From an uncultured Gammaproteobacteria bacterium (GTDB lineage Bacteria; Patescibacteriota; Microgenomatia; UBA8517): 64,000 nucleotides of DNA. Below, one piece after another: positions 1 to 48,808 of the stretch. The notes under the pieces were generated by a model. It ran no database searches. It saw only the letters and a program-made list of their open reading frames with translations, and was not told where the DNA came from. The number at the start of each line of letters is the position of its first letter. Position 1 is the first letter of the stretch. Made by a program: the position numbers and the translations under genes. The stretch lies in assembly GCA_964502815.1 (NCBI GenBank), contig CAZCXV010000003.1, forward strand, positions 4,694 through 68,693, in the 5' to 3' direction.

Positions 1-95
1 TGGCTAATAAAAGCGAGAAACGAGCAATCGAGGGTGATAACGCTATACAGCTCAACCTTTTTGAAACATTTAAGGAACGTAAACGACTAGAGGTA

Positions 96-578
96 ATGCG
101 AATGGAGGTAAGACTTAACAAACGACAGAAAATAGGACAGCTTTTCCGTACGCTTGGTATTACATCTGACTTGACCCTAAAAAATCTATTTAGCACAACA
201 ATCGCTCAAAAGGTCTTGCTTCATTATCTTGACGAACTTGAAAGCAAACGGTTACCCTTATTAGACTACAAACAGACAAACTCCAACTCATTGTTGACAG
301 ACCTTATAATTAATAACCCGAATATCGGTATACGAAAAACGATACAACTATTTGGATTAAAACAGGCATTTGATAGTACAACCCCTCGTGACCTTAGGAG
401 TATGTTTGGCAGATACGGTCAAAGAAGTTGGTACAGGCTGGTTGCAGAAGCCAAAACAATAAAGCTACCAAATACTAAAAGCCCTCTTGGGATAGTCCGT
501 GAACATTTGACCCGTTTTGAACCCTTAAAACTAGTTGATTTTCAACAACAAATGTTAAATAATGATAAATATAACTAA
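96..578 (+). CDS. Hypothetical protein (element-associated)
   Basis: 160-aa ORF with no recognisable motif. It is immediately upstream of, and overlaps, the Xis-like gene. Confidence 0.35.
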   Translation: MRMEVRLNKRQKIGQLFRTLGITSDLTLKNLFSTTIAQKVLLHYLDELESKRLPLLDYKQTNSNSLLTDLIINNPNIGIRKTIQLFGLKQAFDSTTPRDLRSMFGRYGQRSWYRLVAEAKTIKLPNTKSPLGIVREHLTRFEPLKLVDFQQQMLNNDKYN

Positions 579-756
579 TATGGCAGAAGAACAATACTAT
601 TCTATTGCAGAGGTCTCCAAGATATTAAAGGTCGCTTATTTGACTGTTTACCGATGGATACAGGCTAAGCACCTTGTTGCTCTGAAAGCAGGCAAACAAT
701 ATAGAATTAAAAAGGAAGATTTAGAGACATTCCTTAGAAGATATAGGCATAAATAA
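562..756 (+). CDS. Excisionase/MerR-like helix-turn-helix DNA-binding protein
   Basis: 64-aa protein. YSIAEVSKILKVAYLTVYRWIQ...KAGKQYRIKKEDLETFL matches the excisionase-family HTH pattern. Confidence 0.6.
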   Translation: MINITNMAEEQYYSIAEVSKILKVAYLTVYRWIQAKHLVALKAGKQYRIKKEDLETFLRRYRHK

Positions 757-757
757 T

Positions 758-1360
758 ATGTATTGCAATAATTGTGGAAAACATAATCCAGAGGACAGTA
801 AATTTTGTAAATACTGTGGGGCTGAAATCGTAAGCGTGTCAGCAGACCATAAAGCCGACAGTCGTGCTCAGTCAGAAGTCAAACCATCAGAAGCAGAGCC
901 TACTGGAAAGAATAAGGCAGGACTAACTGGCTGGTTGGCATTAGTTGGATTGGGCTTGATTGTTGGGGTTTTTATACAAGGATATGGGGTGTTGGAATAT
1001 TTGCCATTATTGTCTGAAGTTTACGAAATTCCAGGGTATTCAACTCTTCTTCAACTTGAGTTCCTTTGTAGCATCATATTTACTGGATTTACTGCATATC
1101 TTCTCTACTTATATCTCAAAAAAAACGAGAAGTTTCCAAAGTACTATTTCGTATTCCTAATCGCATCAATCATTTATGTAATACTTGACCATCTGTTTCT
1201 CGCTTCGTTAAGTGCCCCTACCACAGAACTGCAAAATCTTATCAACGACGGTTTATCAGAAAACATGGCAACAGTTAGTAGAACAGTCATAACTTCCATA
1301 ATTTGGGCTTTGTATATCAAAAAATCAAAACAGGTTAAAGCAACATTTACCAATAAATAA
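758..1360 (+). CDS. Zinc-ribbon domain membrane protein (paralog 1 of 5)
   Basis: N-terminal MYCNNCGKHNPEDSKFCKYCGAEI, i.e. CxxC-x10-CxxC, followed by about 4 hydrophobic helices. Confidence 0.6.
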   Translation: MYCNNCGKHNPEDSKFCKYCGAEIVSVSADHKADSRAQSEVKPSEAEPTGKNKAGLTGWLALVGLGLIVGVFIQGYGVLEYLPLLSEVYEIPGYSTLLQLEFLCSIIFTGFTAYLLYLYLKKNEKFPKYYFVFLIASIIYVILDHLFLASLSAPTTELQNLINDGLSENMATVSRTVITSIIWALYIKKSKQVKATFTNK

Positions 1361-1362
1361 AT

Positions 1363-2049
1363 ATGTACTGTAATAAATGTGGTAAACAAATTGAAGAAGA
1401 TAGCATTTTTTGTCAATTCTGTGGCAACAGGATGGCTGACAATAGCCCAGAGCCACAATCAGAAAAAGCCTCTCAGACAGAAAATGTTTCTAAAAAAACA
1501 GTTAATAAAAGTAAATCTGATTTATTGTGGGATAAATTCGCAGAGGTTTATGATGCCAAGGACGACGAGCGAGAAAAATTTAATCAATTATCCTCAGAGT
1601 ACATTTGGGATTTAATTGAACGATTGTACACAAACGCATTTGAAACGTTTATACAGGAGAAAAAAAGCGAGTTAAATTCTCAACCATATAAGGCAATCGA
1701 GGCTTTGAAAAATCTGTATTTATATTCTGTTCTTGGCGGATATAAGTTATGGATTGCAGAAGCCTTATTGAAAGATAGGCAACTAGAAAAGTTTAAGCCT
1801 TTTGACATAGATAAATTTGTAGAAGAATGGAAAGCTAATGATTTCCAAAAAGTAATGAAGAGTATTTCTGATGAAATGAGTGTTTGTATGACGAGGTATC
1901 TTGAACACAGAATAAGTAATTTTCTGGAAAACTCACCTTCAATAAAAGACATACCAAATTCCACAATGGAAGAATTGAAAAGCTCAATAACTTTTCAGAT
2001 TATAAATGGTTACATTGCAGGAGAAGTAGAAGCAAAATTTAGAAAATAA
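1363..2049 (+). CDS. Zinc-ribbon domain protein (paralog 2), soluble C-terminal domain
   Basis: N-terminal MYCNKCGKQIEEDSIFCQFCGNRM. The start is 3 nt after the previous stop. Confidence 0.6.
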   Translation: MYCNKCGKQIEEDSIFCQFCGNRMADNSPEPQSEKASQTENVSKKTVNKSKSDLLWDKFAEVYDAKDDEREKFNQLSSEYIWDLIERLYTNAFETFIQEKKSELNSQPYKAIEALKNLYLYSVLGGYKLWIAEALLKDRQLEKFKPFDIDKFVEEWKANDFQKVMKSISDEMSVCMTRYLEHRISNFLENSPSIKDIPNSTMEELKSSITFQIINGYIAGEVEAKFRK

Positions 2050-2050
2050 T

Positions 2051-2587
2051 ATGATTTGTAATAACTGCCAAACAGAAATACCAGATAACGCAAAGTTCTG
2101 TAATAAATGTGGACAAAAAACAGACGATGCGAATAGGCCTATCTCTAATCCGAAAAAGAATGGGAAATCTATACTAACGGGTGTGGTTTCTGTTATCGTA
2201 TTTTTATTGGCATTTGGTGTGGTTCGCTACCTCACCCAGGAAGTTATTTCACCTTCAGGAAGTAGTACCTCAAAGGCAGAACTTATTAGTCAGACCGTCA
2301 AAGAAGTTAAAGCCAGTATGTCATTACCAAGTCAAGTAGATGAAGCAACAACATTAGTTGATATTACGGCAGAGTTAAACGCTATTCGTTATCACTATGT
2401 TCTTTCAGGTCTTGATACGAATAACTTATCAAACGACTATTTGAAAACCTATTTAGGTACAAGTATTTGTCAAAACAAGGACACTAAAGCACTTCTTAAT
2501 CAAGATATTAATATGGAATATTCATATTCAGTCAAAAGCTCAACCAAAAAATACTTTATAAGTTTTACGAAAACAGATTGTAACTAA
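2051..2587 (+). CDS. Zinc-ribbon domain protein (paralog 3), single TM plus extracytoplasmic domain
   Basis: N-terminal MICNNCQTEIPDNAKFCNKCGQKT, with a TM segment VVSVIVFLLAFGVV. Confidence 0.6.
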   Translation: MICNNCQTEIPDNAKFCNKCGQKTDDANRPISNPKKNGKSILTGVVSVIVFLLAFGVVRYLTQEVISPSGSSTSKAELISQTVKEVKASMSLPSQVDEATTLVDITAELNAIRYHYVLSGLDTNNLSNDYLKTYLGTSICQNKDTKALLNQDINMEYSYSVKSSTKKYFISFTKTDCN

Positions 2588-2596
2588 ATAACTCTT

Positions 2597-2977
2597 ATGG
2601 ATTGTAATAATTGCCAGAACACAAACAGTAAAGATGCAAAGTTTTGCGTACATTGTGGCTCTGAACTTTCAAAAGGCAAAATTGAGGTTGAGGAAGGCTC
2701 AGTTGATAGATATTTTGCAGAACAAAAAGCAAATTTTATTGAAGAAGCTAAAAGACTCGCTGATGGTGAGATGAAACAAGGTGTTGTTTGGTTTGTTATT
2801 GCATTAGTAATAACTTTTGGAAGTTATCTTTTTGCATCCGAAGGTGGAACTTATTACGTTTTTTGGGGTGCGATGATTTACGGCATTTACAGATTAATCC
2901 GAGGCTTTTGGTACAAACTTAATCCAAAATCGCTTCTCAACAAAGCAGAGGAAGAAGCAAAAAAAGAAAAACAATAA
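2597..2977 (+). CDS. Zinc-ribbon domain protein (paralog 4), 2 TM
   Basis: N-terminal MDCNNCQNTNSKDAKFCVHCGSEL. Confidence 0.6.
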   Translation: MDCNNCQNTNSKDAKFCVHCGSELSKGKIEVEEGSVDRYFAEQKANFIEEAKRLADGEMKQGVVWFVIALVITFGSYLFASEGGTYYVFWGAMIYGIYRLIRGFWYKLNPKSLLNKAEEEAKKEKQ

Positions 2978-2978
2978 T

Positions 2979-4298
2979 ATGTATTGTAAAAAATGCGGTA
3001 AGGAAAATCCTGAAAGAAGCAAGTTCTGTCAGCATTGTGGAATACAGTTTAACGAACGAACATCTTCAGCCAATACTGCCAATGAGAGTAGTTCAGTAAA
3101 TGAATACATAGCCGTAAACAACCCTCCATATCCCTACGTTATTTCAATATGGAAACTTATAATAATGTGTGTCTTTACTTTCGGTTTTTATGAAATCTAC
3201 TGGTTTTATAGGCAATGGAAATCCTTCAATACAGTTAATAATTTGAAACACGGAAGTTCTACTCTTTGGGTTTACTCACTCTTTGCTCCTCTATCCTCAT
3301 ATTCATTATTCAAACACATTTCAGGTAAGGTTAAGGAAACAAACAACGACAAAGGGATAGAAGCAGGTGGTCTGGCAATTGTATACTTTTTTCTCACACG
3401 ATTTTGGCTGGGGTTCATACCTCTAATTTCTGTCCAAAATAAAATTAATCATTATTGGGAAAAGAAGTACGGCAATAAGCTTGTTAGGTCTAATTTTGGG
3501 GTTTGGAACTGGATTGTTGTTGTTGCGGTAGCATTAGTGCTCATTTATGCTATCTCTTCCGAAGAAACCACCACTAGCACAACATCAGATACCTCCACAA
3601 GCACATCAGTTGTCGAAAAATATAATCAAGAAGAGATTGTCTCATCTGTAGTAAATATTTTCTGTCCGAGTATTGTTGAAGGAGAAGAAGGAACTGGAGG
3701 CTCTGGAACGATAATTACCAAAGAAGGAATAATTCTTACCAATTCTCATATTATTCCTCAAGATGAGAAATATATTAACGTTGATGAAAAAGGTTGTTTA
3801 GTTATACTACCAAATTCAAGCACAGGACAACCTGAAGAAATGTATTGGGCAACTCCAATAGTTCTTCCTGAAATTAGCGACACATACGACTTAGCATATT
3901 TATCTATTTATGCCGCCTATTACGACGAGGAAAGTAAGGAATATAAAGGAAGTTATCCTCGCACCTTTCCTGCTTTTGATGACAGTAGTAGATGTGTTGA
4001 CGAAAACGTAAAACTTGGAGAAAAAGTGACCATATTCGGATACCCTTCTCTAAGTGGGGGTTATTCTTTAACTGTAACAGACGGACTTGTTAGTAGCTTC
4101 CCTGGTGAAGGTCTTATTGTTACATCTGCGAAAATTAGCGAAGGCAACTCTGGTGGTTTGGCTGTAGATGCAAAAGGTTGTATGTTGGGCATTCCTTCTA
4201 TGATTAGCTATGACGAAACTGAAAGTTTGGGTGTAATTATTTCATCAGATTTAATTGTTAAATTTTCAGATGAAGTCTCAAAATATTTAGAACAATGA
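2979..4298 (+). CDS. Zinc-ribbon / DUF4234-like TM / trypsin-like serine protease fusion (paralog 5)
   Basis: N-terminal MYCKKCGKENPERSKFCQHCGIQF. A YEIYWFYRQW TM region and an S/T-rich linker follow. The C-terminal domain carries GNSGGLAVDAKGCMLGIPS, close to the chymotrypsin-fold GDSGGP motif. Confidence 0.6.
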   Translation: MYCKKCGKENPERSKFCQHCGIQFNERTSSANTANESSSVNEYIAVNNPPYPYVISIWKLIIMCVFTFGFYEIYWFYRQWKSFNTVNNLKHGSSTLWVYSLFAPLSSYSLFKHISGKVKETNNDKGIEAGGLAIVYFFLTRFWLGFIPLISVQNKINHYWEKKYGNKLVRSNFGVWNWIVVVAVALVLIYAISSEETTTSTTSDTSTSTSVVEKYNQEEIVSSVVNIFCPSIVEGEEGTGGSGTIITKEGIILTNSHIIPQDEKYINVDEKGCLVILPNSSTGQPEEMYWATPIVLPEISDTYDLAYLSIYAAYYDEESKEYKGSYPRTFPAFDDSSRCVDENVKLGEKVTIFGYPSLSGGYSLTVTDGLVSSFPGEGLIVTSAKISEGNSGGLAVDAKGCMLGIPSMISYDETESLGVIISSDLIVKFSDEVSKYLEQ

Positions 4299-5767
4299 AA
4301 GCAATAATTTTAGCCAGAGTATCAGATAAAAAACAGGACTCCAACGAAGCTCAAATTCTTCGGGTTTCAGATTACGTTAAAAACAAACAACTAATTGTTT
4401 GGAAAACGTACGAAATAGAAGAAAGCTCAACAAAAGGTGATAGAGAAAAATTTCAAGCTGTAGTTGAAGAAATTCAACAAGCCAACGAGCCTATTGCCCT
4501 TGTTGTAGATACCGTAGATAGACTTCAAAGAAGCTTTAAGGAGTCCGTTCAACTGGACGACCTACGTAAAGCAGGCAAACTCGAAATTCATTTTTACAGA
4601 GAAAGTTTAGTCATTAACCAAAACTCGAATAGCTCTGACCTACTTCGATGGGATATGGCTGTAATGTTTGCTAGAAGTTATGTTCTTCAATTAAGCGATA
4701 ACGTCAAAAGAAAACAAGAGCAAATGCTTAGAAGTGGTATTTACCCAAGCCAACCTCCTTATGGTTACAAGCGGGTTCCTGTTGCAAAAGACAAAACCGA
4801 AATAGTTATTGACGAGTATGCTTCAAAAATTGTCCAAAAAGCCTACGAATGGTACGCAACGAGTAGTTTTTCAATGGAATTATTACGAGAGAAACTAAAA
4901 AAGGAATATGGCGTTAATTGGTCAAAAGGTTTTATAGATAAGGTACTGAAAAACGACTTTTATTACGGTCTTATGACTTGGAATAAAGGGAAATCAAACG
5001 AGAAAACATACACGCACAATTATCCTCATATAATCGAGAAACCTTTGTTCGACCAAGTACAGAAAATAAAAGCAGGATTTAACAAGAAACCTTTTAAGTA
5101 CGCAGGTAAACCTTATATCTACCGAGGATTACTGAGATGTGGTCATTGTGGACTAGCTGTGACCCCAGAAAAGCACAAAGGGCACGTCTATTACCATTGT
5201 ACTCAATACAACGGCAAACACGGGGCTGAATGGCTACGAGAAGAAACAATAACAGAACAAATAGGTAATGTATTTAAAAAGCTACAAGTCCCTGATTACA
5301 TATTAGAGCAGATAGTAACTTCCCTACAGGTTAGTCACGAAGGCAAGGCAGATTTTCGAGAAACCCAATACAAGCAACTTACAGAAGAACATGAGGTATA
5401 TACCAAAAGATTAGAAAAAATCTACATCGATAGACTGGACGGGCGTATTACTGACAATGAGTATGACAAGTTCTATCAGTCATTTCGTGACAAGATATCT
5501 GAAATTGATACCCGACTGGCAATACTCCAAGAAGCAGACGACAACTACTACATCACGGCTAGATACCTGCTAGAACTGGCAAATCGGGCTTATGAGCTTT
5601 TCAAAAGTTCAGAAGTTGAAGAAAGAAGGCGGTTAATTAAGCTCGTGCTATCGAACCTTAGAGTAGAAGACAAAATAGTGCGATTTGATGCGATAAAACC
5701 ATTCGACACAATCTTAAATTATGCCGATAGTCAACTATGGCTCCCCGAACAGGATTTGAACCTGTGA
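4295..5767 (+). CDS. Large serine recombinase (resolvase/invertase N-domain, recombinase domain, C-terminal zinc ribbon)
   Basis: MKAIILARVSDKKQ carries the catalytic Ser region. CGHCG...YYHC forms the zinc ribbon. At 490 aa it is the size of phage-type serine integrases. The ATGA start overlaps the upstream gene. Confidence 0.85.
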   Translation: MKAIILARVSDKKQDSNEAQILRVSDYVKNKQLIVWKTYEIEESSTKGDREKFQAVVEEIQQANEPIALVVDTVDRLQRSFKESVQLDDLRKAGKLEIHFYRESLVINQNSNSSDLLRWDMAVMFARSYVLQLSDNVKRKQEQMLRSGIYPSQPPYGYKRVPVAKDKTEIVIDEYASKIVQKAYEWYATSSFSMELLREKLKKEYGVNWSKGFIDKVLKNDFYYGLMTWNKGKSNEKTYTHNYPHIIEKPLFDQVQKIKAGFNKKPFKYAGKPYIYRGLLRCGHCGLAVTPEKHKGHVYYHCTQYNGKHGAEWLREETITEQIGNVFKKLQVPDYILEQIVTSLQVSHEGKADFRETQYKQLTEEHEVYTKRLEKIYIDRLDGRITDNEYDKFYQSFRDKISEIDTRLAILQEADDNYYITARYLLELANRAYELFKSSEVEERRRLIKLVLSNLRVEDKIVRFDAIKPFDTILNYADSQLWLPEQDLNL

Positions 5768-5812
5768 CCAATCGCTTAACAGGCGAGTGCTCTACCGCTG
5801 AGCTATCGGGGA
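5738..5812 (-). tRNA. tRNA-Asn (anticodon GTT), CCA encoded
   Basis: I folded the cloverleaf manually. The acceptor stem is TCCCCGA/TCGGGGA and the D-stem GCTC/GAGC. The anticodon loop is CTGTTAA and the T-arm is ACAGG-TTCAAAT-CCTGT. Confidence 0.85.
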
Positions 5813-5961
5813 TTATTGTCACCGACAAACTATGCTTATCGGGGACTGTTGATAACAGGCTTATTATAGCAAACGGGATTGTGACTTGGAAGGCTAATTG
5901 GTCTTGCAGATTGTAGGATAATTGACATAAATGTCTGTTTTTTGCTAAGCTTAGTAAAATA

Positions 5962-6498
5962 ATGAAAATAAAATCCTTTGTTTTTCTTTTAACTGTTTTT
6001 CTCCTTTCTTTTTCTGCAACCTCTGTTCTTGCTCAAGACGCAACTCCCAAGGTAGGCAAAAGACTTGGAGAGCTTAAAATGAAGGCTTGCCAGTCACACG
6101 AGGAATCTTTGCAACAAAGAATGACTAAACTAACCAATATGACGACAAATATGCAAAACAAGTTTGCAGCCCACGCTCAGAGAGTAGAAGATTATTACAC
6201 AGACAAAGTTATTTCTGCTGGCAAAACTGTTGCCAATTATGATCAGTTAGTGGCTGATGTCGAAAACAAAAACACTAAAGTTTCTGAAAGTCTGGCTCAA
6301 GCCCAAACAACCGCCAATAACTTTAGTTGTGAGGCAGAAAATCCAAAACAGGTTTTAACCTCCTTTAGAAAAGATATGCAAAGCACCAAAATGGCTCTGA
6401 AAGAATATCGAATAGCAATTAAAAATCTAATTGTTGCAGTTAGGGGAGTTGCAAAGACTTCCGAAAGTCCAACAGCAACTAGTGTGCCAGCAGAATAA
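5962..6498 (+). CDS. Secreted hypothetical protein (signal peptide, coiled-coil-like)
   Basis: MKIKSFVFLLTVFLLSFSATSVLAQ is a signal peptide. There is no catalytic motif. Confidence 0.45.
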   Translation: MKIKSFVFLLTVFLLSFSATSVLAQDATPKVGKRLGELKMKACQSHEESLQQRMTKLTNMTTNMQNKFAAHAQRVEDYYTDKVISAGKTVANYDQLVADVENKNTKVSESLAQAQTTANNFSCEAENPKQVLTSFRKDMQSTKMALKEYRIAIKNLIVAVRGVAKTSESPTATSVPAE

Positions 6499-6720: not shown

Positions 6721-7094
6721 GGGAACCAGTCAATTGGGGTTTTGTCGTCTGGCTCGCCGTTGTAGTTGACTGTTATTTCTTCACCTTTTTTGATTTGTTT
6801 CAAGGCTCTATAAACCATAGTATTGTCTCTAAAGTTTTGCTTCCAGTCTGCATTTGGAAAGTGTGAATGGTTATACATTGATCCGTAGCCCCAGACTACA
6901 GCTGCACTCCTGGTACTTCTCCAGGGATAGACATATCTAAGCATTTCTGTTTTTTCAACCTGTTTTCTCTCTTTTGGTGTAAGCTTTAAAATCGGAGCCT
7001 TTTCAATTAGATCGCCTTCCTTGAAGTTTTTCATAGCAACAACCCCTTTACCCTTTTTGGGAGAAATATATTTGATTTCAACTTTGTAACGCAT
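6717..7094 (-). CDS. SET-domain protein (putative lysine methyltransferase)
   Basis: GKGVVAMKNFKEGDLI matches the N-SET GxG motif. YNHSHFPNADW matches NHSCxPN. GEEITVNY matches the ELTxDY-like C-terminal motif. The protein is 125 aa. Confidence 0.7.
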   Translation of the reverse strand: MRYKVEIKYISPKKGKGVVAMKNFKEGDLIEKAPILKLTPKERKQVEKTEMLRYVYPWRSTRSAAVVWGYGSMYNHSHFPNADWKQNFRDNTMVYRALKQIKKGEEITVNYNGEPDDKTPIDWFP

Positions 7095-7121
7095 AGGTAG
7101 AATTGGCTAACAGTATCTAGA

Positions 7122-8651
7122 TTACTGTAAATATTGTCTTTTCTCAACCGTTATTTTTCCAATTTCCATAGTTTCAAGTATTTTAGTGTTGGCAAAGTTT
7201 TTCATCCACTTTCCATATCTGTCTATATCTACAACGGGTTCTTTTATCAAGAAAAGTAGTTTGTCGCAACCAAGAGTTGGGGTGTTGTAATTAAACTCTC
7301 CTCCTGGAATATAAACATACTTGTGGGACTTTGGATACACTTCATAGTGGCAGGGAACGTGACCATATTTGTTTTTTCCTCTCCACCAAAATAGATAGTC
7401 ATAGGGATAATCAAAGAAAGAGTTGGTCATATAAATATAGGCATTAAAGCCATTTTCTTCGTTTTTTGAGTAAATCCAGTCAATAACTTGTATCTGATTA
7501 ATCAGAAGCCCAGGATCATTAGAAGGCTTTAGATACTCTATATATCTAGGGATAAAGATTAATAGTTGACTTACAAAAATAACCGCAAGTATCGGAATTG
7601 AGACGTACTTTTTAATTTGCGACAAGAGCATAAAAAGGCTAATAAGTATTAAGGTTGGCAAGAAAACTGTATGCCAGTCTTTCCAACCTTTGTTGGTGGA
7701 GAAGAAAAGATAAGAAACTATGAAAAGAAAACTAGTAAGATAAATAAAACCAACTACATAGCTGTTTTTCTTTTTTGCTCTAGTAAAAAAGAAAATTACT
7801 ATTGTTAGTATCACCAAGCTAACAACTAGGCTTTGGGGGAAAATGGAATCGGTTAGTATTTTGCCAAAATTGGTTAGGTTAGCAAAAAAGTTAGTTCCAG
7901 AAAATATGCCTCTGGCTGATTCCAGTTGATCCGAGTTTCTAAAAACTGAGATTGCCTGTTTTGCTACAATTAAACCGGTAAGCCCCGGGAGTGTATAGGT
8001 GGTAAGGAGATAATTTTTGATTGTTAACCTCTTTTCTATGGTTGACCACAAGCCAAAAGCTGCAAAGAAAATAAACAACGCTGCTGCCGAAGCTAAATCT
8101 GCATTGAAAGAAAGAATAACTGGAATAATACAAAGATAATAATATTTTTTGCTTTTTGTTTCTAAAAATAAAACCAAAAGAAACAAAAGTGTTACTGCTA
8201 GAAAAACAGTTGGAAAGGGATTAAAGGCATATCTGGAGGTGTTAAAAAATAGCCAGAAGAACTGTAAGGCGATACTTACTAGATATGCATAGGTTTTTAA
8301 AATGTGTTTATGGAAAAACAAAAAAACAATTACCATCAGGCAGGTATTTAGGAGAATTAACACAAATACTCCACCTATTGGATGGCCTTGGAAAAGAAAA
8401 TAGCCAGGGGAAAGAAAGTAATACCATAAAGGTCCTGTATAAATGCCTGCAATTGTTGTTTCAGGACCTTTTTTGATTAGTTGTTGTCTTTCGACTATTT
8501 CCCGAACGTAAACTGCGTCCCTGCCTTGATCCATAGTGAAGAAGAAATTATTTCCCAGAATTGGTATGATGCGAATAGTAAATGAAACTAAAACTAAAAA
8601 TATCAAAAACAACTTGGTTTTTGTCGGTAATTGTTTTACTTGGTTTAGCAT
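7122..8651 (-). CDS. Polytopic membrane GT-C-like glycosyltransferase family protein (paralog A)
   Basis: TM1 is followed by a DQGRD loop motif, many TM helices and a C-terminal soluble domain. It is homologous to the divergent neighbour. Confidence 0.5.
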   Translation of the reverse strand: MLNQVKQLPTKTKLFLIFLVLVSFTIRIIPILGNNFFFTMDQGRDAVYVREIVERQQLIKKGPETTIAGIYTGPLWYYFLSPGYFLFQGHPIGGVFVLILLNTCLMVIVFLFFHKHILKTYAYLVSIALQFFWLFFNTSRYAFNPFPTVFLAVTLLFLLVLFLETKSKKYYYLCIIPVILSFNADLASAAALFIFFAAFGLWSTIEKRLTIKNYLLTTYTLPGLTGLIVAKQAISVFRNSDQLESARGIFSGTNFFANLTNFGKILTDSIFPQSLVVSLVILTIVIFFFTRAKKKNSYVVGFIYLTSFLFIVSYLFFSTNKGWKDWHTVFLPTLILISLFMLLSQIKKYVSIPILAVIFVSQLLIFIPRYIEYLKPSNDPGLLINQIQVIDWIYSKNEENGFNAYIYMTNSFFDYPYDYLFWWRGKNKYGHVPCHYEVYPKSHKYVYIPGGEFNYNTPTLGCDKLLFLIKEPVVDIDRYGKWMKNFANTKILETMEIGKITVEKRQYLQ

Positions 8652-10117
8652 TTAGACTTTTAAGTATACAAGACAATAATATAATAATTGGCTTTGATCA
8701 GGCCAGAGACTTATTTTCAGCCAAAACAATTTGGACACATAAAGACTTAAAAATAATCGGACCAACTGCAGGCAATAATACTGACCTACACCATGGCATC
8801 TTGTGGAGTTATTTTATTTTGCCTCCAATTATTCTTTTCGGGGGTAACCCTTATTTTGTATCTTTTTGGAATAGCCTATTTAATTTGGGGGCTGTAGTGT
8901 CAATTTATTTCCTGGCCAAGTCGGTGTTTAAGTCAAGTAAGACAGGATTAATTTCGGCATTTTTGGCTGCAGTCTCAATATATTTCGTTGAGTATTCAAG
9001 TTGGCTGTCAAATCCCTCGCCAACACTTCTAACTGTTCCACTGTTTTTCTTTGGAGTATGGAAATATGCGAGAGAAAAACATTGGGGACTAGTGGTAGCC
9101 TTTATCTCTCTGGGATTGTCTATCCAGTTTGAGCTTTTCTTTATTTACCTTATCCCAATTTTTTTACTTTTGTGTTTTATTTTGAAGTTAAAGTTTCCTG
9201 ATTTAAAAACTTTAACATTTTCAGTTATGGGTTTTTGTATTGTGACTTCAACGATGATTGTTACCGAAATTAAATATAATTTTTCTGGAATAGCTTCAAT
9301 ATTGGGTGCAGGTAGTGATGTCGGTGGAGGAGAAGACAAGCTGGCAAATGTGCCAAAGTATGTAGACAGATTTTTGTTAACTTTTTCCCAAACTCTTTTT
9401 CCACAGAGTTTGGCTTTAGGAAGAATTGTTGGCATATTAACAGTTTTGGCATTCTTATTTTTAGTAATTAAAAATTTTAAAGACAAGAAAAAGGTAAAGC
9501 CGTATGTTTTTATTCTTGTCTATCTTCTTTCCTCTTCAATTATGCTTTTTCTTGGCTATCACGATGCGCCTTGGTTTTTAATTGGCCTGTCTCCAGCAAT
9601 TATTGTTTCAGTAGGTTTTCTGATGTCAAAGATTAATAATAATTATCTTTTGGGGTTAGTTTTATTATTAATTGGAATACTAAACTACCAAACTCTTAGT
9701 GGGACTAAAGGGGTAGGGCAGCCGCTATTGGGGCCAGACAGAGCTTCAATAATGGCAAAACAGCTGGAAACAATTGATTACACCTATCGAGCATCAGAAG
9801 GCGAATCGTTTGCAGTAAATACGCTGACCAACCCTTTGTATATTAATGCAGTTTGGGGTTATCACTATGATTGGTTTGACAAAATTTATGGCTACAAGCC
9901 TTCTTGGGGAGGAGGGGATCAGTTGTATCCATACAACACATTAGAGAGTATGACCGGCAGGGAAAAATATCTTTATTTAATATTTGATACAACACCAAGA
10001 GTTCCCTATGTGCATACACTTTTGATGCAAAAATGGGCAAATGAAAGGAGTGAACTAATTGAAGAAAAGGGATTTGGAGGAATAAAAGTGGAAAAGCGGC
10101 TTTTTACCAGTAGATGA
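8582..10117 (+). CDS. Polytopic membrane GT-C-like glycosyltransferase family protein (paralog B)
   Basis: The GFDQARDLF loop after TM1 aligns with the TMDQGRDAVY loop of paralog A, and the overall architecture is shared. Confidence 0.5.
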   Translation: MKLKLKISKTTWFLSVIVLLGLAFRLLSIQDNNIIIGFDQARDLFSAKTIWTHKDLKIIGPTAGNNTDLHHGILWSYFILPPIILFGGNPYFVSFWNSLFNLGAVVSIYFLAKSVFKSSKTGLISAFLAAVSIYFVEYSSWLSNPSPTLLTVPLFFFGVWKYAREKHWGLVVAFISLGLSIQFELFFIYLIPIFLLLCFILKLKFPDLKTLTFSVMGFCIVTSTMIVTEIKYNFSGIASILGAGSDVGGGEDKLANVPKYVDRFLLTFSQTLFPQSLALGRIVGILTVLAFLFLVIKNFKDKKKVKPYVFILVYLLSSSIMLFLGYHDAPWFLIGLSPAIIVSVGFLMSKINNNYLLGLVLLLIGILNYQTLSGTKGVGQPLLGPDRASIMAKQLETIDYTYRASEGESFAVNTLTNPLYINAVWGYHYDWFDKIYGYKPSWGGGDQLYPYNTLESMTGREKYLYLIFDTTPRVPYVHTLLMQKWANERSELIEEKGFGGIKVEKRLFTSR

Positions 10118-10179
10118 GTTGGCTTCATGTTAAAATTGACAAGTGAAAAAAGGCAACGGTTGCTATTGTTGTTATATTA

Positions 10180-10719
10180 TTGGTTACAGCTGCATTAATC
10201 GTAGGCGCTTACTATTTGGGAAAACAAAGTGACAAGATGAGTATTTCAGAAGCCAACATTTCTTCTCCAACGCCAAATCCAAGCCCATCTGCTATTTCTG
10301 TTACAGCAATTCCAAAACTAACTTCAAAATATGATTATGCTGGCTGGCAAACATATACTGACTCAAAAGCAGGATTTTCGATTGGCTACTCTCCACAAGA
10401 AAAGATATTAGACAAAAAAGAAGGAGAATTTGTCTATTTCAGTAGATACAGAGTAGTCGTCTATTCTGATTACGACGGAGGATCTAGAAGGCAGTGGTTT
10501 AATAGTAAGTTTGATACCAGCACATATCAAGTTGCCTATGAAGACTATAGTGTTTTTAGGGTAAACGCACTAATAATTAAACTAAGTGATCCAGGAAGTA
10601 TGGGTAGTACCAATGTGGTAATTCCAAGGGGGAGAGAGGTCTATCTTTATTCTGCAAGTTCAGGAAGTGAGAGTCTAGATATAACAAAACAAATTATCTC
10701 TACCTTCAAGTTTTTGTAG
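10180..10719 (+). CDS. Hypothetical membrane-anchored protein (probable non-ATG start)
   Basis: N-terminal TM helix and a Ser/Pro-rich linker. The frame is open from 10147 with no in-frame ATG until an internal Met. Confidence 0.35.
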   Translation: MVTAALIVGAYYLGKQSDKMSISEANISSPTPNPSPSAISVTAIPKLTSKYDYAGWQTYTDSKAGFSIGYSPQEKILDKKEGEFVYFSRYRVVVYSDYDGGSRRQWFNSKFDTSTYQVAYEDYSVFRVNALIIKLSDPGSMGSTNVVIPRGREVYLYSASSGSESLDITKQIISTFKFL

Positions 10720-11065
10720 GTTTAAAAAATAGGTTCAAAATAGTTCATCATATTCCTGACGTAACTCCCCTTGGTTGGATCTCTCAAGGAACTCAGTCAC
10801 AGAAATCGCTTTCTCAGGTTTACGAATTTGATTAGTTACGCTAGTTGATGTTCCCGCATCTCCATCAGTAATCCAAGGAATTGAGGTGGTATAGAATCCT
10901 TGGAAATTGGTGAGTTATTGGGATGGACAATAAATGCTGATTCAGTTTCTAGGACATCTTCACTCATGAATATTATTATAGCCTAAAATACCAAAATAGC
11001 TTTTGGCTAATATAAAGACTTTGTCCATCAAGTGGGCAGGCTATTGTGTAATTTGATTTGCCATA

Positions 11066-11905
11066 TTATGGCTTTTTCAGTAAATGCAAATCTTTAGAGT
11101 TTTTTGGAAGAATTACTTTTTTCCCTGTTGTTTGTTCAATTTCTTTTCTGGCATTTCCTGCAATTGAGCCACCCTTAATTGCAACTTTTCTGTTCTCATT
11201 AAAACTTTCTGGTTTGAGAGATTTTGATATTTCAGTAGTTGAAGTTTCAGCAAGCATATTGAGAACCAATTCAAGGTTTGTCATGTTGTCTCTTAAGTTT
11301 TCTTTTTTCAAATTTTTGTAGTTTTTGTATTCTCTAGTTTTCATTCCAGCCCAGGCAAAAGTAATATCGTCAGTAAGGATTGCAAATTCGCCTGAAGTAT
11401 TAACACCCCTTTCTTCCCATTCATCTGTCAAATCTTTTCTGATATCAATGCTTTTTAGTCTTAAATTGACCCATTCCTTGGAGTAGCCCTTCTTTAGGTA
11501 ATAGTTCATTGCTCTTTGGATGGCTTTTTCTGGATCATCTACTTCTTCGACTCTTTCATAGCCAACGCGAGCCAGCCACAACTTAAATGGTTCTGCATTA
11601 GGAGAGGGGATAGATTGAATTATTCTAAACATTGTTTCTGTGTCTGCTGCATCGGTTAGGTAATATTTACCATCTGAAGATTGCATTTTCAGTTGTACGA
11701 TTTTTTCGTACGACTGACTACCTTCATTTTTCAGTTTTGTTTTTAGATCTGACCAATATCTTTTAGGAACACTGCTTCCAGAAAGAATGCCTATAACATC
11801 AATCACAGAAAAATACCATTCTTCTTTGATATGGTCCCAATATCTTCTTATCTTGTTTCCTTCAAACAAAACAATTTTTGCCGAATCTTTATGTTTACTA
11901 TCCAT
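11066..11905 (-). CDS. Bro-N / DinD-like DNA-damage-inducible family protein (paralog 1)
   Basis: The N-terminal region FEGNKIRRYWDHIKEEWYFSVIDVIGIL is Bro-N-like. The central block FRIIQSIPSPNAEPFKLWLARVGYERVEE recurs in the 41179..42018 paralog. The C-terminal region is similar to the dinD gene at 63005. Confidence 0.65.
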   Translation of the reverse strand: MDSKHKDSAKIVLFEGNKIRRYWDHIKEEWYFSVIDVIGILSGSSVPKRYWSDLKTKLKNEGSQSYEKIVQLKMQSSDGKYYLTDAADTETMFRIIQSIPSPNAEPFKLWLARVGYERVEEVDDPEKAIQRAMNYYLKKGYSKEWVNLRLKSIDIRKDLTDEWEERGVNTSGEFAILTDDITFAWAGMKTREYKNYKNLKKENLRDNMTNLELVLNMLAETSTTEISKSLKPESFNENRKVAIKGGSIAGNARKEIEQTTGKKVILPKNSKDLHLLKKP

Positions 11906-12119
11906 ATTTTTAAAGTTGAATCTTAAGTTATTAATCTACAACATTATTTTACATTTGTCAAGCTATCGAAGATTAGTATATACTTCTCAACATTTTCTTA
12001 CTTATGTGGCAGGTTTAATTTTATTTATTTTCTTTAGATTATCATTTAAGGATAAGTAAAAATCATCTTTGGGGATGAATGATTTTCTTTTGGGAAGTAA
12101 GACACGGCGAAAAGCCTAA

Positions 12120-12563
12120 AAGACAATAATCCTCAATACACATCTTGTCGGCACGGTCGATGAAGGCGCAGGCAGGCGTGCGATTGAAGAAGTTAGCATT
12201 GCTGAAGCCAAAGAATATATTGAGGAAGTAAAGCTTTACTTGGTTACCTACGGAGGCGACCTTCTGTATGTATTTGCCCTGTATGACCATATTATTTCTT
12301 CCAAAAAACCAGTGGATATTGTTGCCGAGGGCGTATGTATGTCGGCCGGGGTGATGATCTTGCAGGTTGCAAGAAGAAGGTATGCGACTCCCACTCTTTA
12401 TTTATGGTTCACCCATCAATCAATATTGTCGAAGAGAAGTCCTACCAGAAAATGTCTTTCTGTCTATAAGGCCTGCAGATTTGGCATGTATGGCTTAATT
12501 GATGAAGTTATAAATTTTCCCACTCTTTCAAAAGATCTACCCACAAGCTTTTCAAAAAACTAA
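12120..12563 (+). pseudogene. ClpP-family serine peptidase remnant (N-terminally truncated, frameshifted)
   Basis: KLYLVTYGGDLLYVFALYDHI...VDIVAEGVCMSAGVMIL...RRRYATPTLYLWFTHQS...YGLIDEVI aligns block-wise to ClpP (IYLYINSPGG..., the Ser motif, MIHQP, GLVDSI). There is no start Met and a frame break near 12430. Local GC is elevated. Confidence 0.5.
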
Positions 12564-13398
12564 GCCCTTTTGGTTTGAGAATTTCCTTTTTATTTTTCTG
12601 GTTGGTGATTTTATTTATCGAGCTTTGTATCCAGGCCAGAGATTCTTTTTTTGTTTTGCCATCAAAAAGGTGTCCACCCATTTCATAGTCAGGCAGTTTG
12701 GTGAATTTATCTATTTTTAAGACTCTGTTCAAATTTAAGAGGGCGTATTGTCGTATTGATTTTAGCGTCCCTTCCTTTTTAAATCTCCGAAGTGAAAAGT
12801 AGTAGTAATTGTCTCTGGAAATTTTAAAATTGAAACCTTCTTTTACCGCTCTTTCGAGTAAATCTGTGTCCTCTGCAAACTTCAGATTTTCATCAAAACC
12901 TTCTATTTTTTCAAATACACTTTTTCTGATGCCAATAAAAGCTCCAACAGAAGATGGAGAGCCAAAGAAGTTTGTAAACTCAAAAATACTGTTCAGGCCA
13001 ATGGCAATTGCTTTATCGGTCTGAAGCTTTGAATCCGTCTTTATCCAAGTAGTAAGAAGGTCTGTCTTATCCTTTTCAAAAGCAGCACACACTTTCGCAA
13101 TAAATATTTTTGGGATTTTAGTATCAGCGTCAAAAAAGATTAAAATATCTCCCTTGGCATTTTTTGCTCCCAAGTTTCTTTGAAAAGAGACATTTCTTTT
13201 ATCAGCTTTCAAGGTTTTGATTTTTAACCTATTATTAAAAGATGTTGCTTTGGCTAAAGTTTTGTCTTCGCTTTGGCCGTCAACAACAATTACCTCAAAA
13301 TCCTTAAGAGTTTGCTTTTCAAGGTTAGTAAGAAGCTTGGGCAAATATTTTTCCTCGTTAAGGCAGGGGATAACTATTGAGAAATGTGGATTGGCCAT
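12508..13398 (-). CDS. Family 2 glycosyltransferase
   Basis: FSIVIPCLNEEKYL...VIVVDGQSED...FFDADT are the GT2 DxD-type motifs. Confidence 0.8.
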   Translation of the reverse strand: MANPHFSIVIPCLNEEKYLPKLLTNLEKQTLKDFEVIVVDGQSEDKTLAKATSFNNRLKIKTLKADKRNVSFQRNLGAKNAKGDILIFFDADTKIPKIFIAKVCAAFEKDKTDLLTTWIKTDSKLQTDKAIAIGLNSIFEFTNFFGSPSSVGAFIGIRKSVFEKIEGFDENLKFAEDTDLLERAVKEGFNFKISRDNYYYFSLRRFKKEGTLKSIRQYALLNLNRVLKIDKFTKLPDYEMGGHLFDGKTKKESLAWIQSSINKITNQKNKKEILKPKGLSFLKSLWVDLLKEWENL

Positions 13399-48702: not shown

Positions 48703-48774
48703 GGGCCTGTCGTTCAACGGTTAGGACGGGTCTCTTATAAAGACCAAACGATAGTTCGACTCTATCCAGGCCCA
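48703..48774 (+). tRNA. tRNA with anticodon UAU (nominally Ile, reading AUA)
   Basis: Manual cloverleaf: acceptor GGGCCTG/CAGGCCC, D-stem GTTC/GGAC, anticodon stem GGTCT/AGACC, loop CTTATAA, T-arm GATAG-TTCGACT-CTATC, 4-nt variable loop. Confidence 0.7.
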
Positions 48775-48808
48775 CAGATTTGAAAAAAAAGGATTGTCGG
48801 GGATGGCA

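Follow-up and report, generated by a model that had tools for sequence, protein, structure and literature searches.

Zinc-ribbon-headed gene arrays usually ending in an HtrA-like serine protease and repeatedly carried by tRNA-targeting serine-recombinase elements of Patescibacteria

Introduction

This study concerns five consecutive genes in a 64,000-nucleotide stretch of metagenomic DNA (the whole stretch, hereafter the window; contig CAZCXV010000003.1, positions 4,694 to 68,693 of the forward strand, assembly GCA_964502815.1), which is recorded under the name of an uncultured Gammaproteobacteria bacterium and assigned by its GTDB lineage to Patescibacteriota. Each of the five genes begins with a short C4 zinc ribbon and continues into a different body, the last of which contains a serine protease. 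The array exemplifies a modular cluster of Patescibacteria, made up of two to six consecutive genes with a terminal ribbon, and it is the conserved part of an integrative element of ~9.8 kb located at the 3' end of a tRNA-Asn gene. These two parts of the description, the identity of the array and its context, are close to certain. It is further proposed that the ribbons assemble the gene products into an accessory membrane proteolysis module. The combined statement of identity, context and this function is regarded as an evenly balanced proposition, and the mechanism taken alone, a docking tag that serves envelope proteolysis, is put forward tentatively, with its chances somewhat short of even.

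All domains involved belong to known families, and ribbon-bearing transmembrane proteins are common in monoderms; the arrangement itself appears to be undescribed. No account of this cluster was found in the searchable literature, whether under the Pfam names or under zinc-ribbon arrays in the candidate phyla radiation. What appears to be new is the combination of the same terminal ribbon on every product, a PDZ-less HtrA-like protease at the end of the array, and repeated carriage by tRNA-targeting serine-recombinase elements.

Five ribbon-headed genes with unrelated bodies

The motif M-x-C-x-x-C-x10-(F)C-x-x-C-G opens all five open reading frames (ORFs). Their scores against Zn_Ribbon_1 (PF13240; ribbon pattern CxxC-(~10-12)-CxxC) are 32.2, 28.4, 32.2, 26.4 and 27.4 bits for genes 1 to 5, each at residues 2-24 and each above the Pfam gathering threshold of 25 bits. 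A regular-expression search for start-proximal C4 ribbons found no ORFs in the 64-kb window other than these five. The ~22-residue N-terminal ribbon is the sole part that the proteins have in common: their bodies represent five mutually unrelated families, each conserved across loci as its own orthologous group.

A first-pass annotation, made from the sequence alone, had listed five zinc-ribbon-headed ORFs with distinct C-terminal modules (four transmembrane helices; soluble; one transmembrane helix and an ectodomain; two transmembrane helices; a DUF4234-like transmembrane block plus a trypsin-like protease), spaced by 1-9 nucleotides and placed directly upstream of a serine recombinase gene. 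Profile searches and the ORF coordinates bear this out. Its description of the genes as paralogs is overstated, given five separate body families that share the ribbon head alone; they are not recent paralogs.

The genes are packed very closely (Table 1). According to the ORF listing and direct reading, the gaps between genes 1 to 5 measure 2, 1, 9 and 1 nucleotides. A small helix-turn-helix (HTH) gene ends 1 nucleotide before gene 1, and the stop of gene 5 overlaps the start of the recombinase gene by 4 nucleotides (ATGA). The HTH gene, the array and the recombinase gene thus form one packed same-strand run with spacings of -4 to +9 nucleotides, which would fit a single operon. A scan of window positions 1-6200 found 15 promoter-like sites, against 18.3 ± 4.6 in shuffled sequence, and 5 terminator-like sites, against 3.8 ± 2.4.

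Table 1. Coordinates of the array and of the adjoining features in the window
Feature	Position	Strand	Description	Family or remark
rep387 gene, 3' part	1..578	+	387-residue conserved element gene	Paired with a SpoVG-like gene just upstream (contig L001)
HTH gene	562..756	+	Small, excisionase-family (HTH_17)	First in the tightly packed run
Gene 1	758..1360	+	N-terminal zinc ribbon and DUF2569 membrane protein with four transmembrane helices	F3
Gene 2	1363..2049	+	Zinc ribbon, disordered linker, soluble all-helical domain	F4
Gene 3	2051..2587	+	Zinc ribbon, one transmembrane helix, ~100-residue ectodomain	F9
Gene 4	2597..2977	+	Zinc ribbon and hairpin of two transmembrane helices	F5
Gene 5	2979..4298	+	Zinc ribbon, DUF4234-type membrane block, last transmembrane helix, Ser/Thr-rich linker, PDZ-less DegS/HtrA-like serine protease	F0
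Large serine recombinase (integrase)	4295..5767	+	490 residues	Resolvase, Recombinase and Zn_ribbon_recom domains
tRNA-Asn(GTT)	5738..5812	-	Integration site and right junction of the element	ARAGORN; Rfam 70.7 bits

A modular cluster across Patescibacteria

Related loci were collected mostly by scanning genome collections with an alignment of the protease, giving 63 non-redundant Patescibacteria loci. Consecutive ribbon genes number zero at 5 loci, one at 8, two at 17, three at 7, four at 6, five at 16 and six at 4; at least two are present at 50 of the 63 loci, and five or six at 20. Ribbon genes reach a density of 1.34 per kb within the arrays; in the flanking sequence, 608 kb in all, the density is 0.013 per kb. 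At nearly every locus, the protease gene closes a same-strand run of ribbon-bearing genes or stands one place before its end.

Clustering of the bodies yields about a dozen recurrent families. They include the protease, DUF2569 (family F3, at 12 loci), the helical domain of gene 2 and the hairpin of gene 4 (family F5, at 10 loci), together with ribbon-transmembrane-TPR proteins of ~300 residues, ribbon-YbjN proteins, double-ribbon ectodomain proteins and several small transmembrane proteins. These families recombine in a broadly conserved order, as in F3-F4-(F9)-F5-F0, F4-F8-F0, F12-F4-F8-F1-F0, F6-F1-F2-x-F0 and F11-F1-F0. The gene marked x, of ~155 residues, lacks an N-terminal head; its product, a membrane protein of the Zn_ribbon_15 family, bears the Zn_Ribbon_1 motif C-terminally instead (L029 9474-9998, L031 2156-2623, L036 9534-9998 and a further 14 loci). 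Arrays with this gene thus have a ribbon on every product, and the tag can sit at either end of the protein.

Array composition differs among relatives: L013 has four of the array genes, without gene 3; L015 has three; L093 has gene 2, gene 4, a TPR protein and the protease; and L003 has four array genes and the HTH gene, with no recombinase. At L004, three ribbon genes stand in a core-like neighbourhood that includes ribosomal proteins S6 and S18, SSB and YchF. The survey of array copy number that the first-pass annotation had suggested thus finds related elements with five, four or three array genes and arrays that are combinatorially modular across Patescibacteria. That annotation had also held that its model would be undermined if relatives carried the same five genes unchanged in core-like contexts; three relatives do carry them unchanged, on elements or contigs linked to a large serine recombinase and not in core-like contexts. 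The HTH gene lies directly upstream of the array at a minimum of 13 loci, some without an adjacent recombinase; when only the 54 arrays with at least 400 nucleotides of upstream sequence are counted, a small HTH gene precedes 12.

Two of the arrays, L012 and L014, come from one metagenome-assembled genome (MAG). A number of Patescibacteria-type array contigs (L010-L012, L014, L016, L017 and others, with proteases 55-66% identical) are titled "uncultured Gammaproteobacteria", "Pseudomonadales" or "Bdellovibrionales" in third party annotation (TPA) MAG records; these titles are probably taxonomic mislabels, or the contigs were mis-binned.

Shared 5' sequence as a probable product of coding constraint

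The first-pass annotation had described the gene starts as a near-identical nucleotide cassette and suggested modular diversification by duplication or recombination. Spelled out, such a model would have duplication, gene conversion or the neighbouring recombinase exchange C-terminal modules in the manner of a shufflon or contingency locus. Several observations are in keeping with it. A repeat finder groups 68-nucleotide direct repeats at the starts of four of the genes into one family, with 68-75% identity to the first copy; a serine recombinase gene adjoins the array; and relatives differ in array composition. However, the likeness is no more than a common peptide would produce. The mean pairwise nucleotide identity of the five genes across their first 22 codons is 0.608, compared with 0.619 ± 0.014 expected when the five 22-residue peptides are back-translated in 5,000 rounds with the codon usage of 41 long window ORFs, and 81% of the simulations reach the observed value. 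Sites with identical residues use the same codon in 54 cases, against 56.5 expected, and synonymous matches are thus not above chance. An identity no higher than the peptide motif implies is one of the two findings that the annotation had named as jointly contradicting its proposal. The AATAAT ahead of each ATG is simply the TAA stop of the preceding gene plus 1-2 nucleotides.

A comparison of heads across five loci with orthologous arrays leads in the same direction. Heads of the same family at different loci have an amino acid identity of 0.74 and a nucleotide identity of 0.77. Heads of different families score 0.49 and 0.60 within the same array, and 0.48 and 0.59 between loci. As there is no excess of identity within arrays, gene conversion is not indicated, and every head evolves vertically with its own gene, following its orthologues. 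The resemblance of the 5' DNA is thus best understood, we infer, as a by-product of a common peptide in an AT-rich genome, and the idea of diversification by duplication or recombination via a common head finds neither gene conversion nor recent paralogy. Within families, the heads are constrained beyond their cysteines, and the ribbon is under purifying selection.

A rearranging function of the recombinase fares no better. All copies of the repeat are direct, in frame and part of separate genes, and the repeat finder detected no significant inverted repeats on which it could act, none exceeding 30 nucleotides at 73% complementarity. The enzyme has the architecture of an integrase and a tRNA target, and is not an invertase. 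Contigs from separate samples (L001 from ENA and L002 from Logan) are 100% identical to the window across the array and collinear with it, with no alternative arrangement. Shufflons and inversion loci (the R64 shufflon with Rci; Min/Hin-type systems) likewise combine alternative C-terminal modules after a common N-terminal segment with a nearby site-specific recombinase, but they possess one constant 5' segment and inverted sites with identical DNA, whereas the array consists of five complete, separately translated direct genes without inverted repeats, whose nucleotide identity does not exceed coding constraint. It therefore does not have the features of a shufflon or DNA-inversion locus, and cassette-mediated module swapping is considered scarcely credible.

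An integrative element at tRNA-Asn

The boundaries of the element were traced with L001, an independent groundwater contig whose positions 7023-12765 match window 1-5743 with 100% identity. On the left the contig continues for another 7 kb; on the right it stops at window 5743, inside the tRNA overlap described below. Source metagenomes, from groundwater, include SRR2177968 and SRR5855237. In an exact-sequence look-up, gene 5 led to L001, and no match was on record for the recombinase and the flanking host protein.

The recombinase scores above the cut-offs of all three of its domain families and matches the PHROG integrase family phrog_95 (E 5e-62). The last 30 nucleotides of its ORF (window 5738-5767) are antisense to tRNA-Asn(GTT). 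The HTH protein matches HTH_17 with 54 bits (cut-off 27), TIGR01764 with 54.8 bits (cut-off 28.8), and PHROG excisionase families. About 9.8 kb upstream, L001 2780-3082 encodes a ~100-residue C-terminal remnant of a related recombinase (E 2e-21). This remnant ends with TGGCTCCCC (about L001 2965), the 9-mer of the tRNA-Asn 3' end, beyond which the sequence diverges. The remnant and its TGGCTCCCC probably mark the left junction of the element. Together with the genes on its left side, the remnant suggests an older element and tandem accretion at tRNA-Asn, which would account for the Fic and alpha/beta-hydrolase genes found further left (L001 1-3082).

From left to right, the element contains a gene for a 243-residue protein, AbiTii, a gene for a 237-residue protein, small ORFs, a SpoVG-like gene, the gene for a 387-residue protein (rep387), the HTH gene, the array and the recombinase. 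The rep387 ORF occupies L001 6437-7600 and is overlapped by the SpoVG-like gene, the two together spanning L001 6172-7600; every element of this type keeps the pair, which recurs in L006, L013, L015, L016 and L093. No Pfam, PHROG or NCBIfam family matched rep387. By eye, its FYDK motif is reminiscent of rolling-circle Rep_trans initiators. At L006, where the protease is 86% identical, the same block from SpoVG to recombinase stands at tRNA-Asn, and DUF3800 and Mrr_cat genes replace the AbiTii side. The side opposite the recombinase behaves as a swappable cargo slot (L001 3845-4891, with AbiTii, versus L006 1226-4807, with DUF3800 and Mrr_cat), and the comparison identifies the array as the conserved part of this element family and the defence-type genes as its variable part. 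The suggestion in the first-pass annotation that the array travels on a mobile element is thus supported by the large serine recombinase, the tRNA-Asn junction, the recombinase remnant and the common core of L001 and L006.

Among the 63 loci, a recombinase homologue lies near the array in 16, within fetched flanks of up to 10 kb on each side. The 3' end of the recombinase gene overlaps a convergent tRNA gene in all nine loci examined (Asn, Gln, Glu or Trp); besides the present element, the overlap is seen in L006, L012, L013, L029, L034, L036, L037 and L039. The sequence of L036 runs from tRNA-Glu through the recombinase, an XRE-type HTH gene, a five-gene array and a GC-rich segment to a Mur-ligase-like gene (read from its N-terminal sequence), and its recombinase, HTH gene and array may constitute a minimal whole element. 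The segment in question (L036 10870-11700) is ~800 nucleotides long, directly follows the array and is strongly GC-rich, whereas the rest of this Saccharibacteria-type contig is AT-rich; the Rfam search gave it only a sub-threshold match.

The junctions permit predictions about the other states of the element. The excised circle would be closed at ...CAACTATGGCTCCCC|TTGGTAAACGC..., and the empty site would read ...GCTTGGCTCCCC|GAACAGGATTTGAACC.... The attachment site falls within the 3' coding end of the recombinase itself, so that the C-terminal tail would switch with the integration state: the integrated form ends ...WLP-EQDLNL, and in the excised circle the recombinase would read ...WLP-LVNAFRNREIEF..., about 30 residues longer. 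When repeats of the tRNA 3' end were sought at the far ends of six other elements, none of 9 nucleotides or more was found except one match of 10 nucleotides, which lies inside the array of L029 and is probably due to chance. Undefined far boundaries are to be expected for serine integrases with short cores.

The element is not recognisable as a phage. Its PHROG matches comprise integrase, excisionase and head-only families and no structural or morphogenesis family, and its Pfam-scanned proteins include no ATPase or structural family. In 50,697 phage genomes, tblastn found no match to gene 5 or gene 2, and a scan of IMG/VR with the protease alignment gave 24 pattern matches, none of which was confirmed. 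An inovirus was considered for so small an element and set aside, there being no morphogenesis ATPase or coat-like family and no presence in viral collections.

Elsewhere in the window, ARAGORN identified a tRNA-Ile with anticodon TAT at 48703-48775. Such a tRNA is uncommon in bacteria, where AUA is mostly read by a modified CAT anticodon.

The protease and its companions

Gene 5 contains a Trypsin_2 domain (56.9 bits) and a marginal match to DUF4234 (25.9 bits against a cut-off of 25.3, limited to profile positions 2-48 of 70). The catalytic triad H257, D304 and S391 is invariant across 28 homologues, as are the four head cysteines and four further cysteines. There are 566 detectable relatives, essentially all from Patescibacteria MAGs, with named matches that include Roizmanbacteria, Paceibacterota and Parcubacteria; Chloroflexota have distant protease relatives without such arrays. 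Full-length relatives of ~440 residues are 50-87% identical, and many others of ~310 residues consist of a ribbon, a single transmembrane helix and the protease.

The AlphaFold 2 model is confident for the protease domain, with a predicted local distance difference test (pLDDT) score of 80-91, and weak for the membrane part. The top Foldseek matches are the protease domains of DegS-deltaPDZ and HtrA (E about 1e-14; target-normalised template modelling scores of 0.7-0.8; about 25% identity). No PDZ family was found in the Pfam scan, and the protein stops 48 residues past the catalytic serine. The NCBIfam scores for HtrA, DegS and MarP families (43.6, 39.6, 36.9 and 19.3 bits) are far below the cut-offs (408-423 bits for DegS, 416 for the Do family and 250 for MarP). 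These features suggest that gene 5 works like a membrane-anchored HtrA-type protease, although it is not a member of those NCBIfam equivalogs. Its catalytic domain is predicted to face outward, because one-transmembrane homologues place this domain outside and because a K/R-rich loop precedes the last transmembrane helix, an acidic, Ser/Thr-rich linker follows it and four cysteines are conserved in the protease domain.

Among the companions, gene 1 matches DUF2569 with 62.1 bits (cut-off 26.5) and has four hydrophobic segments (57-73, 102-118, 132-148 and 171-187); gene 4 has two (63-79 and 88-104). Gene 2 has no transmembrane segment and is modelled as a ribbon, a disordered linker and an all-helical domain (pLDDT 85.6). 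Its family is small: it comprises 52 clusters at 90% identity, and a search of 1.84 billion representatives gives 44 clusters at E<=1e-10. Most of these 44 match over the full length (210-240 residues) with the head kept, at identities down to about 27%, and within the family head C6, C17 and C20 are invariant and C3 nearly so.

Gene 3, the least conserved member of the array and missing from L003 and L013, has a transmembrane segment at 40-58 followed by a C-terminal part of ~120 residues, in which C140 is invariant and C177 nearly invariant; a weak QSregVF match (19.3 bits) stays under the cut-off. The ectodomain itself (window 2270-2587, ~100 residues) is 60-70% identical to the C-terminal domain of ~270-residue proteins of Nealsonbacteria and Moraniibacteria (Parcubacteria), which bear a DUF4190-type anchor in place of the ribbon and transmembrane helix. 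The occurrence of one ectodomain on two anchors points to real but ancient domain shuffling.

Comparison with known systems

The closest structural match of gene 5 is DegS, which also invites comparison with the DegS-RseA pair of the E. coli sigma-E pathway. Both systems feature an N-terminally anchored trypsin-fold protease on the extracytoplasmic side, and the co-encoded single-pass proteins with a small cytoplasmic domain and an ectodomain resemble RseA in topology. The differences are nonetheless considerable: gene 5 scores 37-40 bits against DegS cut-offs above 400; without a PDZ domain, activation by outer membrane protein (OMP) peptides is not possible for it, unlike for DegS; and the cluster includes neither a sigma factor nor a site-2 protease, its heads being C4 ribbons and not sigma-binding domains.

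A functional parallel is offered by Clostridioides difficile, where loss of HtrA proteolytic activity induces the cd2243-cd2242 operon 14-26-fold (bioRxiv 10.1101/2024.03.08.584076). Of the products of this operon, one is a multi-pass membrane protein whose zinc ribbon is N-terminal and cytoplasmic, and the other is soluble, cytoplasmic and likewise equipped with a zinc ribbon. By kind of component, HtrA and these two proteins correspond to genes 5, 1 and 2 (an anchored surface protease, a multi-pass ribbon protein and a soluble ribbon protein). The C. difficile loci are chromosomal, unlinked and tied only by co-regulation, and that HtrA has a PDZ domain and no reported zinc ribbon, whereas the components of the array all bear ribbons and are adjacent at coupling distances on a mobile element. 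Apart from this co-regulation, no other functional link for the ribbon-plus-transmembrane architecture was found in the searchable literature.

S. aureus TcaA and YARHG-domain proteins likewise combine a cytoplasmic ribbon of the PF13240/PF12773 type with a transmembrane helix and a variable extracellular domain, and ribbon-transmembrane-ectodomain proteins of this sort were earlier proposed as membrane-tethered regulators (PMC3355149). They are, however, encoded by single genes, whereas the cluster has a ribbon on all of its 2-6 genes, including multi-pass, soluble and protease members. The array proteins match TcaA through the head, with 15-16 bits against a cut-off of 550, and are not members of that family.

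Proposed function and alternative explanations

In the proposed mechanism, the ribbons would lie on the cytoplasmic face of the membrane and serve as a common docking or assembly tag, gathering around the protease both the membrane modules, which are interchangeable, and the soluble protein of gene 2. The outward protease would then cleave envelope substrates, possibly including partner ectodomains, as DegS does RseA, and mobile elements would spread the set as an accessory function in envelope proteolysis or remodelling. A bolder version, which we consider unlikely, holds that the terminal ribbon is the addressing tag of a previously unrecognised modular and mobile envelope system, in which tagged modules meet on a common cytoplasmic platform with an outward protease and are spread by small tRNA-targeting elements.

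Several points weigh against the docking-tag mechanism. The tag role presumes that the ribbons bind one another or a partner that they share, which no interaction prediction supports; the ribbons also resemble generic ones in solved structures (ribosomal proteins, RNA polymerase subunit P, ArnA). No family assigns a function to gene 1, gene 4 or the membrane block of gene 5, and no structural relative of the gene 2 domain was found in the PDB. The topology of gene 5 is ambiguous, with three strong hydrophobic segments, one weak one and a low-confidence membrane model. The parallel with C. difficile is one of co-regulation only. Core-like arrays of the L004 type, with no recombinase in the fetched flanks, indicate that the link to mobility is not absolute. 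Finally, the mobile context and neighbours such as AbiTii, Fic and Mrr_cat fit a role in defence or exclusion equally well.

The last point leads to the view that the array is a membrane cargo for anti-phage or anti-element defence, superinfection exclusion or the blocking of DNA uptake, its protease and ectodomains acting on incoming particles, pili or receptors. The arrays ride on recombinase-borne elements, accompanied by AbiTii here, by Mrr_cat and DUF3800 in L006 and by Fic in the older remnant; the element of L036 may consist of nothing more than a recombinase, one HTH gene and the array, and a genome may hold several copies, as with L012 and L014. The gene 2 family is rare and patchy, and the heads match phage protein families, one of which is labelled as a moron or membrane protein. 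Temperate dairy phages reportedly carry lysogeny-module moron membrane proteins beside int (Ltp of TP-J34; Sie2009 of lactococcal phages), a position that the array mirrors as a set of membrane proteins encoded right beside the integrase gene of an integrated element. It differs from them in comprising five genes with a protease, in the absence of phage structural genes and of any homologue in the phage collections, and in having no detected sequence relationship to them. Within this element family, moreover, it is the known defence genes that vary and the array that stays constant; some arrays stand in core-like contexts; and no homologue was found in the 50,697 phage genomes or in IMG/VR. 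In PADLOC-DB 2.0, genes 1-3 matched nothing, gene 4 gave one below-noise match (E 0.0077, 13 bits) and the protease domain gave generic matches (RT-Protease_XI, E 3.5e-9); the neighbouring AbiTii is matched, and no system model is. A defence or exclusion function is accordingly a minority possibility.

Two further explanations start from where the array lies: the excisionase-type HTH gene on one side and the recombinase gene on the other are both within coupling distance. According to one, regulated proteolysis times excision: ribbon-transmembrane-ectodomain proteins would act as sensors, a DegS-like site-1 cut would follow, and released heads or the gene 2 protein would act on DNA, RNA polymerase, the HTH protein or the recombinase. 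The affinity of the protease domain to DegS, the small HTH gene ahead of some arrays and the earlier proposal of such proteins as membrane-tethered transcription factors (PMC3355149) would agree with this. Yet the protease and the multi-pass proteins (four transmembrane helices; the two-helix hairpin) carry the same head, which does not fit a released effector, HTH-bearing arrays without an adjacent recombinase are common (L003, L014, L094, L100), and the element encodes no site-2 protease. The heads, of only 22 residues, are C4 ribbons with no zf-HC2 profile match and no signature of zinc-binding anti-sigma factors (ZAS), and the element has no sigma factor gene. Control of excision is thus rather improbable. 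According to the other, the array serves release: its membrane proteins, together with the protease, would make the cell leaky or lyse it when co-expressed with the excision genes, and naturally competent neighbours would take up the excised circle, an idea that would suit a ~9.8 kb element in which no structural or conjugative genes were detected, and holin-sized proteins of two to four transmembrane helices accompanied by an outward hydrolase. Against it stand the lack of any holin or endolysin family (the single Phage_holin_T match, at E 0.021, is under the cut-off), the persistence of arrays without a recombinase, and the strong counter-selection to be expected for a constitutively coupled lytic module; such a release function is very unlikely.

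Implications

If the addressing-tag version of the proposal is true, some tRNA-targeting serine-recombinase elements carry little besides tagged modules, and the spread of such modules between episymbiotic Patescibacteria alters the cell surface, with effects on the exclusion of elements and phages or on interaction with host cells. Recombinases that target tRNA genes and whose coding 3' ends overlap them may also interest integrase engineers. The cluster would provide a first functional handle on the common zinc-ribbon and transmembrane architecture of monoderms. In Patescibacteria, whose genomes are tiny and which rely on other cells, uncharacterised membrane proteins are abundant, and the cluster represents a defined and testable unit of that biology.

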